From: an uncultured Candidatus Saccharibacteria bacterium | GTDB taxonomy: Bacteria; Patescibacteriota; Minisyncoccia; UBA6257; 2-01-FULL-56-20 | DNA length: 64,000 bases | Assembly (NCBI GenBank): GCA_964361095.1 | Contig: CAYHZA010000006.1 | Location: forward strand, 1,828 to 65,827 | Direction of reading: 5' to 3' | Shown here: positions 1,746 through 53,148 of the stretch, one piece after another | How positions within the stretch are numbered: position 1 is the first letter of the stretch | Layout: every line of letters starts with the position of its first letter | The notes under the pieces: model-generated | The model's input: only the letters and a program-made list of their open reading frames with translations | Told to the model about the DNA's origin: nothing | The model's database searches: none | Translations under genes and position numbers: made by a program

Positions 1746-2588
1746 ATGATTATCGGCCACGAGGATTTCCTTCTTAGTTTCGCAAAACTCGCCGATCGCG
1801 GGGAAATAAGTCATGGGTATATTTTCTGGGGACCCGAGCGCGTCGGGAAAAAAACCGTGGCGCTTGAGCTCGCGCGGTATCTCGAAGAAAAAAAGTTTTC
1901 CGAAAGCGATATCCTAAAAAATAAGGGGAGCATTTTAGGGGATTGCCGTGTGGTCTCGCCCGATGAGACAAAAAAAATAGGGATCGACGCCGCGCGCGAC
2001 ATAAAGTATTTTCTTTGGCAGAAACCGAATCGGAGTGAGTATCGTACCGTTGTGATCGACGACGCCCACCTTTTGACCGCGGAAGCCCAGGACGCTCTCT
2101 TGAAGATCGCGGAGAATCCTCCTGCCTCTACATTGCTCATCGTTATTGTGCGTAATCCCGAACTTCTGACGCCGACGTTAAATTCTCGGCTCCAAAAAAT
2201 TTATTTCGCGCCGGTCGGTGAAGAGAAAATACGGGAATGGCTTATCAAGGAATTTCATCTCGCCGCCGCAAAATCTACGGAAATCGCGAAGTGCTCTTTG
2301 AATACCCCGGGGCGGGCTTACGCCTTGCTCTATGACGAGAAATTTCAAAAGATAAGAGACGCGGCTCGCGCTTTTTTAAAAGTTTCGAGAAGTGAGCGAA
2401 AAAATTTCATTAAAGAGCTTCTTCTCGACGATGCGTTCAATTTTGAGGAATTTTTGGACGCTCTTATCGCGGAACGAGTCGAGGCAAAAAATTTCGGCGA
2501 TTGGCACGACCTTCTCGCATTACGAAAAAACGCGGCGTATGTTAATCTGAATCCGAGGCTTCATCTTGAAGCGTTATTTTCGAAATAA
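1746..2588 (+). CDS. holB: DNA polymerase III delta-prime subunit-like AAA+ clamp-loader protein
   Basis: N-terminal Walker-A-like GPERVGKKT and the delta-prime architecture; 280 aa. Confidence 0.7.
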   Translation: MIIGHEDFLLSFAKLADRGEISHGYIFWGPERVGKKTVALELARYLEEKKFSESDILKNKGSILGDCRVVSPDETKKIGIDAARDIKYFLWQKPNRSEYRTVVIDDAHLLTAEAQDALLKIAENPPASTLLIVIVRNPELLTPTLNSRLQKIYFAPVGEEKIREWLIKEFHLAAAKSTEIAKCSLNTPGRAYALLYDEKFQKIRDAARAFLKVSRSERKNFIKELLLDDAFNFEEFLDALIAERVEAKNFGDWHDLLALRKNAAYVNLNPRLHLEALFSK

Positions 2589-2590
2589 TC

Positions 2591-3142
2591 ATGGAAACAT
2601 ATATTAAAGAGCTGGCCGATTATTTTCGGGCGGCGGTGGAAGAATTTAAAACCGAGATCGCGGGCGTTCGGAGCGGCAGACCGACGACCCAGCTCGTTGA
2701 GAATATCCAAGTGGAGTATGCGGAAGGAATGTACCCGATAAAGCAGCTGGGTTCCTTGGGCATCAAACCACCTCGGGAAATCACGATTACGGTATGGGAC
2801 CAAAACGCGGTTACCGCGGTCCTCAAAGCTATCCAAGACGCAAAGGCGGGGATGAGCGTTCAGAATGAAGGAAATGTTGTCCGGTGTTTTTTACCGCCTT
2901 TGTCGCAGGAGCGCCGCGACGAATTTACGAAGTTGGTTAAAAAGATGTCGGAAGGAACGAGAATTCGGATACGCGGAAATCGCGACGATGTGATAAAAAA
3001 AATAAAGGCCGCGGAGGGAGCGAAGGAGTTAAACGAGGACCAGGTTTTTAAGGGAAAAGAACGGATCCAAAAGCTTGTTAATGAGACCAATAAGCAGATA
3101 GAGACAATGGTGGAGGGGAAGGTGAGGGAGTTAGAAGAGTAG
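2591..3142 (+). CDS. frr: Ribosome recycling factor
   Basis: Full-length match to the RRF family (..VRSGRPTTQLVENIQVEYAEG..). Confidence 0.92.
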   Translation: METYIKELADYFRAAVEEFKTEIAGVRSGRPTTQLVENIQVEYAEGMYPIKQLGSLGIKPPREITITVWDQNAVTAVLKAIQDAKAGMSVQNEGNVVRCFLPPLSQERRDEFTKLVKKMSEGTRIRIRGNRDDVIKKIKAAEGAKELNEDQVFKGKERIQKLVNETNKQIETMVEGKVRELEE

Positions 3143-3176
3143 AGGACTTCGGGATGCGCTTTGTACGAAATGAAAA

Positions 3177-3199
3177 GCCGCCTGGGTTGCCCGGGCGGC
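3177..3199. terminator. GC-rich hairpin between convergent frr and a small minus-strand ORF
   Basis: GCCGCCTGGGTTGCCCGGGCGGC forms a 9-10 bp stem. There is no strong U-tract. Confidence 0.4.
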
Positions 3200-3224
3200 T
3201 GGTCTAGTGTTGGGCCTTTTCGCA

Positions 3225-3407
3225 TTACTTCTCCTCGATTGCGGCTACGATTCTCCATGCAGCAGCCCAGATGCCGAAAATAAGGGCATATGCGAAGAGC
3301 GTGATCCCAAAACCGAGAAAATAGGGCCTGCCAACCACTGTGCCACCGAATGCGGCAAAGAAGAAGGCGCAACCCAAAAATATAGAAGCCTTCGCCCTGG
3401 AATCCAT
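3225..3407 (-). CDS. Small hydrophobic protein (two predicted TM helices)
   Basis: 60-aa ORF with two hydrophobic stretches and no recognisable homology. Confidence 0.3.
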   Translation of the reverse strand: MDSRAKASIFLGCAFFFAAFGGTVVGRPYFLGFGITLFAYALIFGIWAAAWRIVAAIEEK

Positions 3408-3520
3408 CTTGGAGCCTCCTCTATGTCAAACAGTTGAAATAACTGATACTGATTGAATTATATATCAAATATGATACATTGTCAAGTTGTGTATTTTCTT
3501 ATATTTGTTACATTGATTGG

Positions 3521-4804
3521 ATGCTCACCGCGCTTATCGTCATTATCGGTCTTTCGCTTCTGATCCTTGGCCACGAGGCGGGACATTTTTTCGCCGCGAA
3601 ATTTTTCAAACTCCGCGTGGACGAATTCGGCTTCGGTTTTCCGCCGCGGATGTTCGCGAAAAAAATAGGTGAAACCGAATATAGCGTGAACTGGCTCCCG
3701 TTCGGCGGATTCGTAAAGATCGCCGGAGAAAACGACCAGTTTGACAAAGAAACGGGAAAAACGCTTACCGATGAGGAAAAAGCCCGCGTTTTTTACTCAC
3801 AGCCCGCCTTACAGCGAAGCATTATTATTTTGGCCGGTGTTTTTGTGAATTTTATTTTCGCATGGTTTTTGTTTTCTCTCGTGCTTATGGCGGGAACGCC
3901 TTCGTTTCTCGCGATAACGTCCGTCTTGCCCGGTTCTCCTGCCGCATCGGCGGGAATTATGAATAACGATATTTTAAAAAACTTTCGATCGGTTGCCGAA
4001 CTCGAGAAAGCTTTTGAAGCAAAGAACACGCCGGTAGAACTTGAAATACTTCGGGAGACAAAGAGTATAAAAATTCCGTTCGTTCCCGCCGCGACCACGC
4101 GCGAGGTGCGTTCCGCGATCGTAATTGAAGATATCCAATCGAATTCACCGGCGGAGGAGGCGAAACTGAAAAAGGGTGATGTGGTACAGGGCTTCTTGGA
4201 AACAAGTGATTTTATTTCGTTTGTGAACGCGCATCGCGGAGAGGTGATTACGCTCCAAGTGCTTCGCAAAAATGAGATTATAACGATTACACCCCATCTG
4301 CGAAGCGATATTCGCGAAGGAGGTCTCGGTATACTTCTCTCCGAAGGAGAACTCTTCAGCGCAGAGGGACTTTTGGTCAAAAAAGGCGGCATTGAACCGC
4401 AGGGATTTTTTTCGGCGATTGGGGACGGATTAGGCCAAACGCTTGAAGTGGCAAAACTTACCCTCTCGGGTTTCTATGAGCTCATTAAGGGATTGTTTAC
4501 TCGGGGAAAACTTATCGAAGGAATTGTCGGACCGATCGGCATCTTTTCATTCGCGGCAGGAGCCGGCCAGATTGGCTTTTCGAACCTGATCTACTTGCTC
4601 GCGCTTATTTCCGCGAATTTGGCGATGATAAACCTTATTCCGTTCCCGGCGCTCGACGGGGGACGCTTCTTCCTCATCCTCGTCGAGAAGATAAAAGGAT
4701 CGCCGATTTCGGTAAAAACCGAGTCGGTTATCAATACGTTCGGATTTGTGTTCCTTATTTTCTTAATGATCATCGTTGCGGTCCGCGACATCATTAATTT
4801 GTAA
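3521..4804 (+). CDS. rseP: RseP-like site-2 zinc metalloprotease (M50 family) with PDZ domain
   Basis: HEAGH zinc motif in the first TM helix, an internal PDZ-like region, and the C-terminal LDGG motif (PFPALDGGRFF). Start assigned to ATG 3521. Confidence 0.8.
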   Translation: MLTALIVIIGLSLLILGHEAGHFFAAKFFKLRVDEFGFGFPPRMFAKKIGETEYSVNWLPFGGFVKIAGENDQFDKETGKTLTDEEKARVFYSQPALQRSIIILAGVFVNFIFAWFLFSLVLMAGTPSFLAITSVLPGSPAASAGIMNNDILKNFRSVAELEKAFEAKNTPVELEILRETKSIKIPFVPAATTREVRSAIVIEDIQSNSPAEEAKLKKGDVVQGFLETSDFISFVNAHRGEVITLQVLRKNEIITITPHLRSDIREGGLGILLSEGELFSAEGLLVKKGGIEPQGFFSAIGDGLGQTLEVAKLTLSGFYELIKGLFTRGKLIEGIVGPIGIFSFAAGAGQIGFSNLIYLLALISANLAMINLIPFPALDGGRFFLILVEKIKGSPISVKTESVINTFGFVFLIFLMIIVAVRDIINL

Positions 4805-46964: not shown

Positions 46965-47165
46965 ATGAGTATCGATTTAGCCGTAAAAAGAAATTTAAAA
47001 AACAGGAAAGTTACCGTTCAAATAGACGCAGATAAGCTGGAGCGGCTTGCGGCGAGTTTTGGGTTTCTTAACCCTGATTTTCTTAAGAGCTTGGATCGAG
47101 CAGAAAAAAACTACGCAGCAGGCAGATACCGCAAAATCAAATCCTTGCGGGATGTGAAGCGGTAA
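46965..47165 (+). CDS. Putative type II antitoxin
   Basis: 66-aa ORF immediately upstream of, and abutting, a RelE/ParE toxin gene. Confidence 0.45.
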   Translation: MSIDLAVKRNLKNRKVTVQIDADKLERLAASFGFLNPDFLKSLDRAEKNYAAGRYRKIKSLRDVKR

Positions 47166-47438
47166 ATGCTTGAGATTTTTGCCACCAACGAATTTGAGGA
47201 ACGATATCGGAAACTTCCGGTGATTGTTCGGAAGAAGGCAGAAAAACAGGAAATTCTTTTTCGCGAAAATCCTTTTTATCCCTCCCTCCATACCGAAAAA
47301 CTGGAGCCAAAAGGAAAACAAGTGTGGAGTTTTCGTGTTGATAAAAAGTATCGGATATTCTTTCGATTTTTAGAGGAAAATAAAGTTTTATTTCTCACCG
47401 TTGGCCCGCACGATTGGATTTATAAGTTGAGATTTTAA
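47166..47438 (+). CDS. RelE/ParE-family type II toxin
   Basis: ..WSFRVDKKYRIFFRF.E.NKVLFLTVGPHD.IY.. RelE/ParE signature. Confidence 0.65.
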   Translation: MLEIFATNEFEERYRKLPVIVRKKAEKQEILFRENPFYPSLHTEKLEPKGKQVWSFRVDKKYRIFFRFLEENKVLFLTVGPHDWIYKLRF

Positions 47439-47745
47439 GCGTGTCCGCGCAATGGGCGTAAAAAGAATTACGTAATATATTGCGTAACTCAAATTTTAGT
47501 TGGCAAAAATAAAAACAAGGAGTGCGAAGAAAAAATCGGAGATAAAAAAAGCGCCGTGTCCGATTGGCAAAAAGCCGAAAATGGCGTAAAATATTGAAAA
47601 TTGCCGGCTTGCCCGCCGAAACTTTAGTGAAGGCGGGGTCGCCCGCCTGCCCTCCTGCTGAGGGTAAAACGGCCGGCAGGTCTAACGGCCCCGAAACATT
47701 CTTCGAATGTAACGGGGTAAATAGTCCATCGGCCAGCACAAAGTT

Positions 47746-47763
47746 CCGCGCAAAGCTGGGGGA
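47746..47763. repeat. Left arm (CCGCGCAAAGCTGGGGGA) of a perfect 18-bp inverted repeat; right arm at 48222-48239
   Basis: Exact reverse-complement match. A 13-bp inner inverted repeat (47776-47788 with 48119-48131) and a 10-bp direct repeat CTTGCCCCGC (47772-47781 and 48152-48161) are nested inside. Confidence 0.7.
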
Positions 47764-47788
47764 TCGTCTAACTTGCCCCGCCAAATTT

Positions 47789-48139
47789 ATGCCATGTTAT
47801 ATTTATATTCTATGTAATAAGGTTGGAAAACACTATGTAGGTATAACCAAGCTAGACCCAGAAAAGCGCCTATTACGACATAATCGGGGCGAGGTATATT
47901 CGACAAAATTTGGTATACCGTGGCAGGTCGTGTATTTTGAAAAACATAACAATTACCGCGAAGCCCGAGAAAAAGAAAAACAAATAAAAAGCTGGCATGG
48001 CGGCAATGCATTCAAAAAGTTTCTGCACATTACTGCGGGGTCGTCTAGCGGTAGGACATCGGCCTTTGGAGCCGAGTACCCTGGTTCGAATCCAGGCCCC
48101 GCAGCAATGCGCAGAAACAAATTTGGCGGGGTGAAGTAG
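47789..48139 (+). CDS. GIY-YIG nuclease-superfamily protein (YhbQ/UPF0213-like); the reading frame has no stop before running through the tRNA-Gln gene
   Basis: YIYILCNKVGKHYVGITKLDPEKRLLRHNRGE....YFEKHNNYREAREKEKQIKSWHG. The true C-terminus is uncertain. Confidence 0.55.
   Translation: MPCYIYILCNKVGKHYVGITKLDPEKRLLRHNRGEVYSTKFGIPWQVVYFEKHNNYREAREKEKQIKSWHGGNAFKKFLHITAGSSSGRTSAFGAEYPGSNPGPAAMRRNKFGGVK
48035..48103 (+). tRNA. tRNA-Gln (anticodon TTG)
   Basis: Acceptor GCGGGGT/..CCCCGC, anticodon arm TCGGC-CTTTGGA-GCCGA (U33, anticodon UUG), T-arm CCTGG-TTCGAAT-CCAGG. CCA is not encoded. Confidence 0.6.
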
Positions 48140-48277
48140 GACAGCGGCCTTCTTGCCCCGCTAAAGGCGGGGTGGAGACGTATCCCGCCTATGGCGGGAC
48201 AAGTCGGGGTTCGAATCCCTGTCCCCCAGCTTTGCGCGGGAAAACCGTGAATTGGGGTTCGATTCCCTGCCCGGCAG
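48116..48277 (+). other. Two tRNA-like 3' fragments (T-arm plus acceptor-3'-like: CGGGGTTCGAATCCCTG-TCCCCCAGC at 48205-48230; TGGGGTTCGATTCCCTG-CCCGGCAGC at 48253-48278) and GC hairpins. No complete cloverleaf could be folded.
   Basis: Manual folding. tRNA 5'-like fragments (GCGGGGTCG at 47633; GCTGGGGGATCGTCTAAC at 47755) lie upstream of the GIY-YIG ORF. Confidence 0.45.
48222..48239. repeat. Right arm (TCCCCCAGCTTTGCGCGG) of the 18-bp inverted repeat
   Basis: Exact reverse complement of 47746-47763. Confidence 0.7.
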
Positions 48278-48279
48278 CT

Positions 48280-48336
48280 GATTTGTAAGCGTACAAATCA
48301 CGTCGAAACGAGTACGCTTTCGACGCTCATTTTTAT
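48280..48336 (+). terminator. Tandem hairpins (GATTTGTA/TACAAATC and GTCGAAA/TTTCGAC) followed by a T-run
   Basis: Stem-loops followed by CTCATTTTTAT. Confidence 0.55.
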
Positions 48337-48359
48337 AGTATCGAGGTAGACCACAACAC

Positions 48360-48827
48360 ATGAAAGCTTTCATTAACAAAACCCACCACTTTCTTACTAA
48401 GAATAAGGTTGTTGTTGTTTTAATTATCGTCTTATCCGTCGTTGGTACGGCATATACTTTTTTACAAAAAAGTTCGCCCTCAGAAACTTATAATGTTACA
48501 TCAAAAAATCAAGAAGGGGGTATCACGGCTGGTAAGATTGTTGTTGAGGGTGCGACGCCACGACACCTCAATACAGAACACATTGCTGAATTGAATAAAT
48601 ATTTGCCTCCGAGTAGAGAGATGGAAATACAGATTTGGTATTTAATGGGAAATGCAGAGGCTCAACAATATGCTTCAGAAATTAAATCATATCTAGAATC
48701 GCAGGGTTGGAAAGTTGATCCATTTCTGGGGAGTTTTAATTTGTTTGAACCAGTAGTTGGCGTACACGTTAAGAATCTCGGAAAAGAAGGTAAGTGGAGA
48801 TTTGAAGTAGGGAGCATGCCTCAGTAA
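48360..48827 (+). CDS. Membrane-anchored hypothetical protein
   Basis: N-terminal TM helix and a 120-aa soluble domain; no homology. Confidence 0.4.
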   Translation: MKAFINKTHHFLTKNKVVVVLIIVLSVVGTAYTFLQKSSPSETYNVTSKNQEGGITAGKIVVEGATPRHLNTEHIAELNKYLPPSREMEIQIWYLMGNAEAQQYASEIKSYLESQGWKVDPFLGSFNLFEPVVGVHVKNLGKEGKWRFEVGSMPQ

Positions 48828-49024
48828 CGCCCCAACCGAGACCCTCCTTCGCATTATCCCTCGCATTGCTCGGGATCTTCGCTCCGCTACGAGCTACGGA
48901 CGGGCAAAACGGGTCAGCGCATAGCGAGAGACCGAAAAGGGCCAGTTTGATCTATAGAGTCGCCCAAATAATACGCATACCGTTAAAAATTTGCAGTTTA
49001 TCTGTTTCATGTTATCGTAAAAAT

Positions 49025-49243
49025 ATGAACACTATTACTATTCCTAAAAAAGTAGCGGCACGAGGCGATCTTGTGGTTATACCCCGTAAGGATTATGAGG
49101 CACTTTTGGAATTAAAAAGACTCAAGGAATTTTCTCCAACTGTTGCGCAAAAAAAGGCGCTCGTTAGAGCCGAACAAAATTTCCGAAAAGGGAAAACCCT
49201 CGCGTATCATGAGCTTGCCAAAAAACTGGGGTTTACGCGTTGA
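49025..49243 (+). CDS. Putative AbrB/MazE-like antitoxin
   Basis: MNTITIPKKVAARGDLVVIPRKDYE.. swapped-hairpin-like N-terminus; overlaps the downstream toxin gene. Confidence 0.45.
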   Translation: MNTITIPKKVAARGDLVVIPRKDYEALLELKRLKEFSPTVAQKKALVRAEQNFRKGKTLAYHELAKKLGFTR

Positions 49244-49478
49244 TCCTGCTGTTTTTAAAGCATTGAAGGGAATACCTCGGCGCGACGTCGAGGTTATTCT
49301 TGAAGCAATCCGGCTTTTGCCAATTAATCCTTATTTCGGAGATATTCAGAAAATGAAAGGCGAAAGCAACGTATGGCGTCGCCGCGCGGGGTCTTATAGG
49401 ATTTTCTATAAAATTGATGGTATCAACAAGATCATTCTGGTATTTCATTTTGAGCGAAGAACTTCGAAAACTTATTAA
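49209..49478 (+). CDS. RelE/ParE-family type II toxin
   Basis: ..NVWRRRAGSYRIFYKIDGINKIILVFHFERR.. RelE signature. Start at ATG 49209 overlaps the antitoxin 3' end by 35 nt. Confidence 0.65.
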   Translation: MSLPKNWGLRVDPAVFKALKGIPRRDVEVILEAIRLLPINPYFGDIQKMKGESNVWRRRAGSYRIFYKIDGINKIILVFHFERRTSKTY

Positions 49479-52158: not shown

Positions 52159-53148
52159 ATGAATCCTGAGACAACAACCAAACGGAGCCCCATTGTTCTT
52201 ATGTGGAAATTCGCGGCCGTTGAAGCTGTCGCGTTCTTCCTTTATTTCGTGGCGACCCTCCTTGGAAATGCAAAGTATGAATTCTACGACCAGCTCTCTT
52301 TTTCGAACTTTCTCTCTTACCAAGCGGCAAAAATGCTTTTCTTGTCCGGCGCCCAATTCGCTCTCACGGTCTACGCATTCCTCTCATGGTACTACGAAGA
52401 TTACACGATCCGACCGGGCTCAATACAGCACTCGCGCGGTGTCATTTTTAAAAAAGAAAAAAATTTTCCAACCGACAGCTCTACGTCGATCACTATTTCA
52501 TCCGGTCTTTTGGGAAAACTTCTCCACTATGGCTCAATACGTATAAAAAATGGCGTATCCTTGTTGGTACTACCTCACATCTCGCGACCGGAACGGATCG
52601 TAAAAGCCATCCGACAAGAATACTCAGCGGACGAAAATGCCTTCGCCGAAAAACCAAACATAGATCAGCTCCTCGCCGAAAACGAACACAATCAGCTGGA
52701 ATTCAAGTCATCCCTCCGATTCGACTATAAAGCGGGGCAGGCTAACCGGGACATCGAGAAAGCCGCGATGAAGACGATCGCAGCTTTTATGAATTCCAAC
52801 GGCGGATATCTAGTGGTCGGCGTAAGCGACACTCGCGCACCTCTGGGACTTCGCAGCGACTACATGACCCTCCAAAGAAAAGACAGCGACGGATTCGAAA
52901 ATCATTTTACCCAATCCTTCAATAGTATGATCGGCCCCGAGTTTCGCAACCTCGTAAAACTGTGGTTTCACAATATTCGCGAACACGACCTCTGCGCTAT
53001 TCAAGTACTCCCCAGCCCGCGGCCGGTTTATCTTAAAGCCGACAACAACGAACAATTTTATATGCGGACGGGAAACATTTCGACCGCCTTGAAATTGAGC
53101 GAAATAGAATCGTACGCGCGTTCCCGTTGGCCACAACGGGCAAGTTGA
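52159..53148 (+). CDS. Membrane protein fusing a bacterial PH (YdbT/bPH_2-like) domain to an AlbA_2/Schlafen-like domain
   Basis: Two N-terminal TM helices. The C-terminal ..HNQLEFKSSLRFDYKAGQANRDIEKAAMKTIAAFMNSNGGYLVVGVSD.. is typical of the AlbA_2 core. Confidence 0.5.
   Translation: MNPETTTKRSPIVLMWKFAAVEAVAFFLYFVATLLGNAKYEFYDQLSFSNFLSYQAAKMLFLSGAQFALTVYAFLSWYYEDYTIRPGSIQHSRGVIFKKEKNFPTDSSTSITISSGLLGKLLHYGSIRIKNGVSLLVLPHISRPERIVKAIRQEYSADENAFAEKPNIDQLLAENEHNQLEFKSSLRFDYKAGQANRDIEKAAMKTIAAFMNSNGGYLVVGVSDTRAPLGLRSDYMTLQRKDSDGFENHFTQSFNSMIGPEFRNLVKLWFHNIREHDLCAIQVLPSPRPVYLKADNNEQFYMRTGNISTALKLSEIESYARSRWPQRAS

Follow-up and report, generated by a model that had tools for sequence, protein, structure and literature searches.

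A 64,000-nucleotide stretch of a contig from an uncultured Candidatus Saccharibacteria bacterium, referred to below as the window, contains a tRNA-Gln locus in which an open reading frame (ORF) for a GIY-YIG nuclease and an intact tRNA-Gln gene are enclosed by pieces of further tRNA-Gln copies. The only tRNA in the window is tRNA-Gln(UUG) at positions 48034 to 48105, on which ARAGORN and Rfam model RF00005 (63.4 bits; threshold, 29) agree. The reading frame from 47564 to 48139 is open through this tRNA, and its likely start is the ATG at 47789; upstream of this codon the same frame consists of tRNA and hairpin sequence. An earlier description made from the letters alone (the sequence-only reading) had reported this intact tRNA-Gln and a GIY-YIG frame that overlaps all of it before the first stop codon at 48139, and both were borne out (PF01541; E = 3e-15). 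The inverted repeats described there were recovered by a repeat finder, each with 100% complementarity: an 18-nt repeat (47746 to 47763 and 48222 to 48239), with arms 458 nt apart, that flanks the ORF and the tRNA, and a 13-nt inner repeat (47776 to 47788 and 48119 to 48131). In 300 shuffles of positions 47400 to 48500, the longest perfect inverted repeat had 8 to 15 nt (median, 9) and never 18 nt, which places the outer repeat beyond chance. The 10-nt direct repeat CTTGCCCCGC at 47772 and 48152 was also present, with no further copy in the 64 kb. An additional inverted repeat (48019 to 48040 and 48097 to 48118; 22 nt, 91%) prolongs the acceptor stem of the intact tRNA-Gln. RNA folding of positions 47740 to 48245, suggested in the same reading as a check, gave z = -10.7 relative to shuffles, with nested helices in the fold.

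The features of the locus are listed below. The tRNA-Gln copies are numbered from the innermost (layer 1) to the outermost (layer 3), and the ORF, layer 1, and the two arms that enclose them are called the cassette.

47564 to 47592, plus strand: promoter-like site TTGGCA-17-TAAAAT (10 of 12 matches), suggestive only, with 1 site against 1.9 expected.
47602 to 47734, plus strand: 5' part of the layer 3 tRNA-Gln relic, the outermost and oldest, read from the sequence.
47608 to 47637, 47642 to 47680, and 47687 to 47721, plus strand: layer 3 hairpins in the acceptor stem, at D-stem position 10/11, and at the D-loop site, respectively, from folds.
47735 to 47756, plus strand: all that is left of an older cassette, namely ~20 nt from the end of a GIY-YIG ORF otherwise deleted, which double as the leader strand (..AAAGTTCCGCGCAAAGC), from repeats.
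47757 to 47772, plus strand: 5' fragment of layer 2 tRNA-Gln, positions 1 to ~17 (TGGGGGA, TC, D-stem GTC, D-loop TAAC).
47773 to 47788, plus strand: left cassette arm TTG-CCCCGCC-AAATTT, which abuts the ATG and pairs with the right arm through the 13-nt inverted repeat.
47789 to 48139, plus strand: GIY-YIG nuclease ORF, with the domain in codons 1 to ~84 (to ~48040) and the stop codon TAG at 48137 to 48139.
48019 to 48033, plus strand: leader strand of the 15-bp leader/trailer helix, which also encodes the last nuclease-domain codons, from covariation.
48034 to 48105, plus strand: layer 1, the intact tRNA-Gln (anticodon UUG; 63.4 bits) and cargo of the cassette; CCA is not encoded.
48105 to 48118, plus strand: trailer strand of the leader/trailer helix, in which pairing begins at the discriminator base, from the inverted repeat and covariation.
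48119 to 48136, plus strand: right cassette arm AAATTT-GGCGGGG-TGAAG, from repeats and comparison with related loci.
48137 to 48229, plus strand: 3' part of layer 2 tRNA-Gln (TAG, D-stem GAC, anticodon arm, CGGGG-TTCGAAT-CCCTG, TCCCCCA, and discriminator G).
48152 to 48172 and 48183 to 48199, plus strand: empty mini-hairpins of layer 2, the first at anticodon-loop position 33/34 and the second in the opposite orientation, from folds and repeats.
48229 to 48239, plus strand: layer 2 trailer GCTTTGCGCGG, the complement of 47746 to 47756, from the 18-nt inverted repeat.
48254 to 48278, plus strand: 3' part of the layer 3 tRNA-Gln relic, a T arm and the acceptor strand CCCGGCA-G, 85% identical to the layer 2 counterpart.
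48279 to 48336, plus strand: two hairpins followed by a U-run, terminator-like by eye, with a weak fold (z = -2.1).

Three different tRNA-Gln sequences are thus nested within ~47564 to 48336, and the whole unit is plausibly one promoter-to-terminator transcription unit. The promoter-like site, which ends ~10 nt before layer 3, is presumed to be the original tRNA-Gln promoter driving the whole unit; the terminator-like end was not listed by the consensus scan.

The sequence-only reading had placed the two acceptor strands of one tRNA-like unit at the arms of the 18-nt repeat. The pairing holds and the detail is revised: the unit (layer 2) starts at T47757, where TGGGGGA pairs with TCCCCCA at 48222 to 48228, and the remaining 11 nt of the repeat (CCGCGCAAAGC and GCTTTGCGCGG) are a leader/trailer extension of its acceptor stem. 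This extension shares homology with the intact tRNA's leader and trailer, as seen in two repeat families: positions 47744 to 47770 are 74% identical to 48021 to 48047, the ORF end and tRNA start of the intact cassette (D4), and positions 48208 to 48242 are 77% identical to 48083 to 48117 (D2). Since the layer 2 trailer complements 47746 to 47756, layer 2 appears once to have been the cargo tRNA of a cassette itself; the same trailer sequence recurs in one related locus (L084). The 3' part of layer 2 reads TAG-GAC-A-GCGGC-CTT..., followed by the T arm and acceptor strand, and its anticodon stem is decayed. When the insertions were conceptually removed, ARAGORN called the joined outer pieces tRNA-Gln(ttg).

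The further 5'-like fragments (47633 and 47676) and the 3'-like fragment (48253 to 48278) of the sequence-only reading are also present but are reassigned to the third, outermost relic, layer 3. With three GC-rich hairpins set aside, its 5' pieces read TGCCGG-G-TC-G-TCTAAC-TAG-TCC-A-TCGGCC and match positions 1 to 31 of the intact tRNA at 25 of 31 positions, two of the six nonmatches being gap columns. TGCCGG at 47602 is complementary to CCGGCA of the 3' part, and the hairpin CCTGCC...GGCAGG occupies the same D-stem position in a related locus (L009). Between the layer 3 5' relic and layer 2 lie only ~20 nt (47735 to 47756), which resemble the end of the nuclease ORF. The order of nesting would then be layer 3, old cassette relic, layer 2, present cassette, and layer 1. 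An old cassette would have entered the host gene (layer 3), the present cassette with layer 1 would later have entered the old cargo (layer 2), and the ORF of the old cassette would have been deleted. The best reading of the locus, which we consider probable, is that a tRNA-Gln transcription unit has been invaded at least twice by a selfish cassette, a homing-type nuclease/tRNA element.

For comparison, 68 loci were fetched from species-representative genomes, the closest ~26 of them from Patescibacteria, and ~50 related loci were compared overall. The cassette has a constant order: left arm, ATG and nuclease ORF, tRNA-Gln, right arm, and then TAGGAC, the rest of the interrupted D arm. The nuclease gene is its only protein gene. 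The insertion point is the D loop of a resident tRNA-Gln, between positions 16/17 and 18. In the comparison with relatives, proposed in the sequence-only reading, the junction of TC(G)TCTAAC with TTGCCCCG lies 25 to 70 nt upstream of the ORF in 22 of the 27 loci found via the protein, and the right-arm sequence GCGGGGTGAAGTAGG lies ~335 nt past the start codon in ~17 of them. The arms are 355 to 368 nt apart in 14 loci with a full-length ORF and 228 to 306 nt apart in three with truncated ORFs. Insertion point and arm sequences are shared across very different genomic neighborhoods and lineages. Typical Patescibacteria cassettes were also found in bins labelled Gammaproteobacteria or Deltaproteobacteria (L003, L016, L018, and L048), probably owing to mis-binning or mislabelling.

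The two helices of the cassette show covariation. The arm helix has 10 to 18 bp with compensated changes, its inner part varying between AAATTT, AAAATC, AATTTT, TAAAT, and AAATTC, and it often covers the start codon. The leader/trailer helix, compared in 23 loci, joins the 15 nt immediately upstream of the tRNA to the 15 nt from the discriminator base onward; 89.9% of the cells are paired, and 14 of the 15 pairs have changed on both sides. None of 500 shuffles reached the observed values, and slid controls collapsed. Among the non-Watson-Crick cells, G-U (28) outnumbers A-C (10), which favors selection on the sense-strand RNA over selection on DNA. All four cloverleaf stems of the cargo tRNA are 99% to 100% paired in these 23 loci, again with compensated changes. 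One explanation in the sequence-only reading, a large structured RNA with the ORF in a loop, is supported as to structure by the two covarying helices, which we read as the architecture of the cassette transcript and not as a separate RNA gene.

The interrupted tRNA copies carry additional inserts of 20 to 30 nt with the form CTTG-YCCCGC(C)-loop-(G)GCGGGR-T(G/A)AA(G), in either orientation. Their stems are perfect and vary by compensated changes (TCCCGCC/GGCGGGA, CACCGC/GCGGTG, TCACGCC/GGCGTGA, and CTCCGCC/GGCGGAG), and they lie at anticodon-loop position 33/34, T-stem 52/53, the T loop, D-stem 10/11, and acceptor 6/7, often just 5' of (T)GG. The family members are nearly all perfect and the scan for them also picked up unrelated hairpins, so that counts of G-T and A-C mismatches were uninformative as to selection at the RNA or the DNA level. 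The D loop itself can hold an empty hairpin, an allele with the sequence form TCTAAC-TTGCCCCGCC-NNN-GGCGGGG-TGAAG-TAGGAC; a metagenome scan for it yielded 28 more loci. Hairpins of the same family also lie inside the loops of other hairpins (L070/L072/L074, L084 at 1540 to 1740, L087, and L095/L023), which suggests that hairpin loops are themselves insertion sites. The mini-hairpins may be internally deleted cassettes, elements mobilized in trans, or repair products. The arm motifs were not found elsewhere in the 64-kb window, and in other loci they are confined to or beside disrupted tRNA copies; a dispersed palindromic repeat, such as a repetitive extragenic palindrome or a miniature inverted-repeat transposable element, was rejected on the former ground. 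A derivation of the arms from tRNA-Gln acceptor strands was also dropped, as the CCCCGCC/GGCGGGG core occurs in tRNA-Pro elements of Chitinophagaceae as well.

The outer and cargo tRNAs were then compared within each locus. The outer copy is identical to the cargo in L004 and L040, and identical except for extra hairpins in L018, L009, and L012. Elsewhere (the window, L007, L010, L069, and other loci), the outer copy is a distinct tRNA-Gln whose stems are compensated internally: the acceptor stems are TGGGGGA/TCCCCCA (outer) and TGCGGGG/CCCCGCA (inner) in the window and TGCCGGG/CCCGGCA (outer) and TGCGGGA/TCCCGCA (inner) in L007. Of 31 distinct loci, ~14 have different acceptor heptamers in the cargo and the interrupted tRNA. 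If one copy were a duplicate decaying at random, its stems would not stay paired, and the two copies thus appear to have separate functional histories, which argues that the cassette arrives with its own tRNA. A decay series is seen in the ORF as well: it has an internal deletion in L025, is reduced to its last ~50 codons in L040 and to ~20 nt in layer 2 of the window, and is absent from L084, which consists of a tRNA, a trailer, and a disrupted copy. Outer tRNA copies are decayed in the window, L002, and L017, and some lack whole segments.

These copies bear on a rival explanation, namely, that the locus represents a new bacterial tRNA intervening sequence in which the arms and mini-hairpins are cut from the RNA, e.g., by a double-strand-specific RNase with or without religation, leaving the outer tRNA-Gln functional, while the cargo sits in the intron loop like homing-endonuclease genes in group I introns. 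It would account for outer "exons" that are identical to the cargo despite one to four insertions (L012, L018, and L009) and that fold as tRNA-Gln when joined, for the precise insertion boundaries, for stems that are perfect or compensated, and for the G-U over A-C bias, a sign of selection on the sense RNA; Patescibacteria are also rich in tRNA and rRNA introns (PMC13011429, PMC11270868). However, the covariance-model search proposed in the sequence-only reading found no intron: over the whole window at gathering thresholds, and over 47400 to 48500 at E <= 10, only tRNA was matched in Rfam, with no group I or group II intron, ribozyme, RNase P, or other family. No bulge-helix-bulge motif was seen at CTTG-CCCCGCC...GGCGGGG-TGAAG, which forms a continuous stem with a 1x2 internal loop, in an inspection by eye with no dedicated search tool run. 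No protein-only tRNA splicing pathway is known in bacteria. In addition, some hairpins lie inside stems (T-stem 52/53, acceptor 6/7, and D-stem 10/11), and outer copies have decayed in the window (broken anticodon stem), L002, and L017, some with segments missing; since an intact copy is always supplied inside, nothing requires the outer tRNA-Gln to work. We regard this explanation as distinctly improbable. Accordingly, of the proposal in the sequence-only reading that a tRNA gene was interrupted by an intron-like or homing-type insertion, the homing-type half is retained, given the same D-loop site in 22 of 27 loci, the rebuilt tRNA-Gln, and the differing cargo, and the intron-like half is not, given the Rfam result, the inspection for bulge-helix-bulge, and the decay of outer copies.

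Several specific identities were rejected. A group I intron in a tRNA gene is contradicted by the lack of a model match and by the position of the cargo-bearing insertion in the D loop, not the anticodon loop. Transfer-messenger RNA, suggested by the split acceptor strands, was not reported by ARAGORN, and RF00023 gave only 9.7 bits, on a T loop. A class II tRNA or tRNA-Sec for the outer unit was set aside as the long "variable region" proved, by eye, to be two inserted hairpins.

The protein belongs to a recognizable family. PF01541 is matched over residues 3 to 71 with 56.7 bits (cut-off, 22.6; E = 3e-15), and a protein search gave 99 homologues (E values down to 1e-75), most of ~116 residues. 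An alignment of 26 homologues shows no variation at H31, N32, and E63 and almost none at Y6, Y16, and R27; by analogy with I-TevI and UvrC, we take Y6, Y16, R27, H31, and E63 to be catalytic. In an AlphaFold model, residues 1 to 84 have predicted local distance difference test scores of 83 to 95, and the tail, residues 85 to 116, scores below 50. Foldseek matched the UPF0213 structures 1zg2 (E = 2e-4) and 1ywl and the Slx1 structure 6seh (root mean square deviation, 2.5 A), so that fold and sequence are closest to UPF0213 and Slx1 and not to I-TevI or the Seg enzymes. The protein is thus predicted to be a minimal UPF0213/Slx1-like GIY-YIG nuclease of ~81 to 84 residues. No named NCBIfam family was matched, and a PHROG homing-endonuclease match was weak (E = 0.005). 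A phage origin was rejected in view of this weak match and the lack of relatives in viral contigs.

Most of the homologues end in a tail encoded by the tRNA (..AAGSSNGRT..FG..YLGSNPSPAA..FGGVK), in which the residues from the anticodon stem vary as covarying tRNA-Gln stems would predict. Some ORF calls also start with ..RDRLTCPAKF, the translation of the outer tRNA fragment and left arm. There is no stop codon between ORF and tRNA in 28 of 32 Patescibacteria loci, and the distance from a K-x-W motif to the first tRNA base is 38 to 39 nt in 26 of the 32 and up to 60 nt elsewhere. Judging from the model, the tail would be a by-product of a stop-less gene abutting a tRNA and not a second domain.

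The kinship with UPF0213 and Slx1, which are not homing enzymes, is one of the arguments for an element that is not mobile now, in which a domesticated structure-specific repair or processing enzyme is cotranscribed with tRNA-Gln and the copies and palindromes stem from local duplication, slippage, gene conversion, and vertical inheritance. The geometry of the cassette is strongly conserved, which would suit a functional operon, no occupied/empty polymorphism was found, and tandem arrays of disrupted tRNA copies (tRNA*), as in L071, L085, and Chitinophagaceae, resemble local amplification. We nevertheless consider this account unlikely. Cargo and interrupted tRNAs differ, each internally compensated, in ~14 of 31 loci, and three different tRNA-Gln sequences are nested in the window; the same insertion point and arms occur in very different neighborhoods and lineages; and series of decaying ORFs and relics without an ORF, as seen here, are what selfish elements typically leave.

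The remaining explanation in the sequence-only reading, scars of repeated integrase-driven integration and excision of an island or prophage at a tRNA-Gln attachment site, is close to refuted. tRNA genes are classical attachment sites and toxin-antitoxin pairs flank the locus on both sides, but no integrase or recombinase was matched among the 15 ORFs scanned between ~39.9 and 57.1 kb, where the neighbors are largely housekeeping genes. Instead of direct repeats of a tRNA 3' end, the locus has nested fragments, among them 5' halves and D-loop junctions. Furthermore, the structure recurs in ~50 loci with the GIY-YIG gene as the only cargo.

If the selfish cassette that we favor is correct, its anatomy allows us to infer how cleavage, homing, RNA processing, host dependence, and expression control could work together. 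The nuclease would break an uninterrupted tRNA-Gln gene, or a hairpin within one, and recombinational repair would copy the cassette in from an occupied allele. The D-loop insertion would split the most conserved stretch of the resident tRNA-Gln (TCGTCTAAYGGTAGGAC) and inactivate the gene. With the cargo tRNA taking over the work of the lost gene, the insertion would be tolerable to the host, which may in time become dependent on the cassette. The cargo is in turn an uninterrupted target that a later cassette can enter, giving rise to nesting. Old ORFs would be deleted, and old tRNA copies would collect small GC-rich hairpins of the arm sequence family. In the sense transcript, the start codon would lie within the arm helix and the ORF end within the leader/trailer helix, and tRNA processing would leave an mRNA without a stop codon; all three properties would keep expression of the nuclease low.

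Several observations weigh against this selfish cassette. The nearest structural relatives, as represented by Slx1, are structure specific and not sequence specific, and only the catalytic domain of ~81 to 84 residues folds, with no separate DNA-binding domain found. Terminal inverted arms are not typical of classical homing-endonuclease genes. Viral contigs contained no relatives of the nuclease and thus pointed to no vector. When exact copies of both flanking proteins were looked up as a search for an empty allele, the contigs were identical to the window or ended inside the locus, and the population assemblies all carry an identical locus. The cargo tRNA keeps the presumed target intact, which leaves self-immunity unexplained unless expression is very low or a hairpin is the true target. 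Outer copies with three to four hairpin insertions and no point substitutions, as in L012, require that hairpins were gained very rapidly, that gene conversion took place, or that the "exons" are under selection. Finally, several alternative orders do not follow neatly from a single model, such as (i) a 5' fragment with an empty hairpin and TAGGACA, followed by the ORF and the tRNA; and (ii) ORF, tRNA, trailer, and a tRNA* with an empty hairpin, in up to two tandem repeats (L071, L073, L085, and L094), which simple D-loop insertion does not explain.

The tandem units of the second order (L071 at 1800 to 2110, L085 at 60 to 350, and L073 at 1260 to 1450) comprise a tRNA-Gln that begins at ~position 4 and extends to its 3' end, an empty hairpin in its D loop, and a trailer of ~22 nt. 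They lie downstream of an ORF-tRNA-Gln pair, and these loci have no tRNA fragment upstream of the ORF.

More distant nuclease relatives abut tRNA genes in 21 of 36 loci outside the candidate phyla radiation (CPR). The adjoining genes are tRNA-Pro in Chitinophagaceae and tRNA-Ser, -Ala, -Arg, and -Trp elsewhere, beside hairpin-disrupted copies. Chitinophagaceae have a normal tRNA-Pro and, downstream of it, at least one unit made up of an ORF and a tRNA-Pro*, with the ORF ending inside the tRNA; in place of its D arm, tRNA-Pro* has CCCCGCC-NNN-GGCGGGG, a core shared with the CPR arms. In the arrays of this family (L027 at 2534 to 3316, L037 at 2730 to 3700, and L031), each unit follows a terminator-like hairpin, and ARAGORN still calls the tRNA-Pro* copies tRNA-Pro. 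5' or 3' tRNA fragments with hairpins also lie beside the ORF in Omnitrophota (tRNA-Arg), an unclassified bacterium (tRNA-Pro), and Bacteroidota (tRNA-Ser). One Bacteroidota locus (L056 at 2439 to 3420) contains tRNA-Ser genes and then partial copies whose T loop is filled by ~130 nt of stacked hairpins, one of them directly after a related GIY-YIG ORF. In Rhodohalobacter sulfatireducens WB101 (L066 and L067), a cultured member of the Balneolaceae, distant nuclease relatives lie next to tRNA-Ser and are flanked by an inverted repeat; the inverted repeat in L064 reads CAACTACGCTAAAGCTTCGTTG / CAACGAAGC..GCGTAGTTG.

These relatives allow a broader proposal, which we put forward tentatively and as doubtful in its full extent. 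The minimal GIY-YIG nuclease, taken to be structure specific, and the GC-rich palindrome family (CTTG-CCCCGCC-loop-GGCGGGG-TGAAG) might together constitute a new class of mobile element whose insertion sites are the loops of DNA that can form hairpins (the D, anticodon, and T arms of tRNA genes and the element's own hairpins). By disabling the resident version of an essential tRNA gene and carrying the sole functional one itself, it would become impossible for the host to lose, a form of addiction. The design of its RNA, with a long-range helix that hides the start codon and an ORF lacking a stop codon that runs into a tRNA, would throttle the nuclease, and the same logic would extend to genes for tRNA-Pro, -Ser, -Ala, and -Arg found in Bacteroidota, Omnitrophota, and other phyla.

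As for the surroundings of the locus in the window, one toxin-antitoxin pair lies at 46965 to 47438 (a 66-amino-acid ORF followed by a HigB/RelE-like toxin; PF05015, E = 2e-7) and another at 48866 to 49478 (an antitoxin-like ORF overlapping a ParE-like toxin; PF05016, E = 1e-6). Other neighbors are genes for a superoxide dismutase, an ABC-F ATPase, and a dehydrogenase. An ORF ~4 kb downstream (52159 to 53148) that combines a Schlafen AlbA_2 domain (PF04326, E = 2e-18) with a bacterial PH domain is apparently unrelated. The window is identical in sequence to a 71.7-kb contig recovered from Hainich groundwater. Independent short-read assemblies of the same groundwater population (Logan and ENA contigs L098 to L106) end at 47637, 47716, 47760, 48204, and 48250. 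Internal tRNA and hairpin repeats break assemblies, and such cassettes are therefore probably underrepresented or truncated in metagenome bins.

If correct, the selfish cassette would be a widespread, unrecognized element of cellular genomes, present in many Patescibacteria and with relatives in Bacteroidota, Omnitrophota, and other phyla, that can invade an essential RNA gene because it brings along a spare one. It would provide a natural route for the horizontal replacement of tRNA genes, and its 81-residue nuclease may recognize tRNA-gene or hairpin DNA. For annotation, it accounts for GIY-YIG "proteins" of ~116 residues that end in a translated tRNA, for tRNA-Gln pseudo-fragments, and for assembly breaks in CPR genomes. 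The transcript, with its nested covarying helices and stop-less ORF-tRNA fusion, offers a testable case of expression control via tRNA processing. Since cultured relatives exist, experiments are possible, and R. sulfatireducens WB101 is a possible experimental system.

Among known systems, the nearest is SegB of phage T4, a free-standing GIY-YIG homing endonuclease encoded in the T4 tRNA gene cluster, whose site includes the tRNA T-psi-C motif and which drives the inheritance of itself and neighboring tRNA genes and can amplify tRNA-containing segments (PMC2330249, PMC13096335); the colocalization of SegB with tRNAs in phages is covered in PMC13096335. Like SegB, the cassette nuclease is a GIY-YIG enzyme whose gene is embedded among tRNA genes. 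SegB, however, is phage borne and larger, has a DNA-binding region, and lies between tRNA genes rather than inside one, and it lacks the inverted arms, stop-less tRNA fusion, leader/trailer helix, mini-hairpins, and nesting of the cassette. With group I introns and I-TevI-type nucleases, the cassette shares a nuclease ORF located in a loop, closed by a long-range helix, within an interrupted RNA gene. Unlike these introns, it has no intron fold, is inserted in the D loop, and provides a whole replacement tRNA instead of splicing, and its protein lacks the DNA-binding domain that I-TevI and the Seg enzymes have. A survey of tRNA introns in Patescibacteria describes group I introns in tRNA-Asn and tRNA-Asp and mentions neither GIY-YIG nor tRNA-Gln, the target of the cassette.

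UPF0213 (YhbQ) and Slx1 are the best sequence and fold matches of the cassette nuclease. Slx1 cuts branched and stem-loop DNA, which, if the analogy is valid, would fit the constant association with hairpins seen here. Neither is known as tRNA linked or mobile, and Slx1 works with Slx4 and carries a RING domain. Integrative elements that restore the 3' end of a tRNA resemble the cassette in that they target an essential tRNA whose function is kept by carried sequence; however, they depend on integrases of the tyrosine or serine type and duplicate no more than the 3' part of the tRNA, whereas the cassette lacks an integrase, interrupts the D loop, and brings a complete tRNA.

The split, multi-intron, and permuted tRNAs of archaea and red algae likewise have short helical inserts at several noncanonical positions, and movement of such inserts from one tRNA gene to another has been proposed for Thermoproteales. 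In those genes, the inserts take the form of bulge-helix-bulge motifs, at which a splicing endonuclease cuts before religation, and none was seen by eye here; the cassette also differs in its bacterial host, in the decay of the interrupted copies, and in the supply of an intact copy. Disrupted tRNA genes of this kind have been reviewed (PMC3978253). No description of a GIY-YIG/tRNA-Gln cassette in CPR bacteria was found in the literature, subscription journals being outside the scope of the search. A homing-type GIY-YIG gene linked to tRNA genes is already known, and what is new is the insertion inside a tRNA gene, the replacement tRNA as cargo, the inverted arms, the stop-less ORF-tRNA fusion, and the hairpin family.

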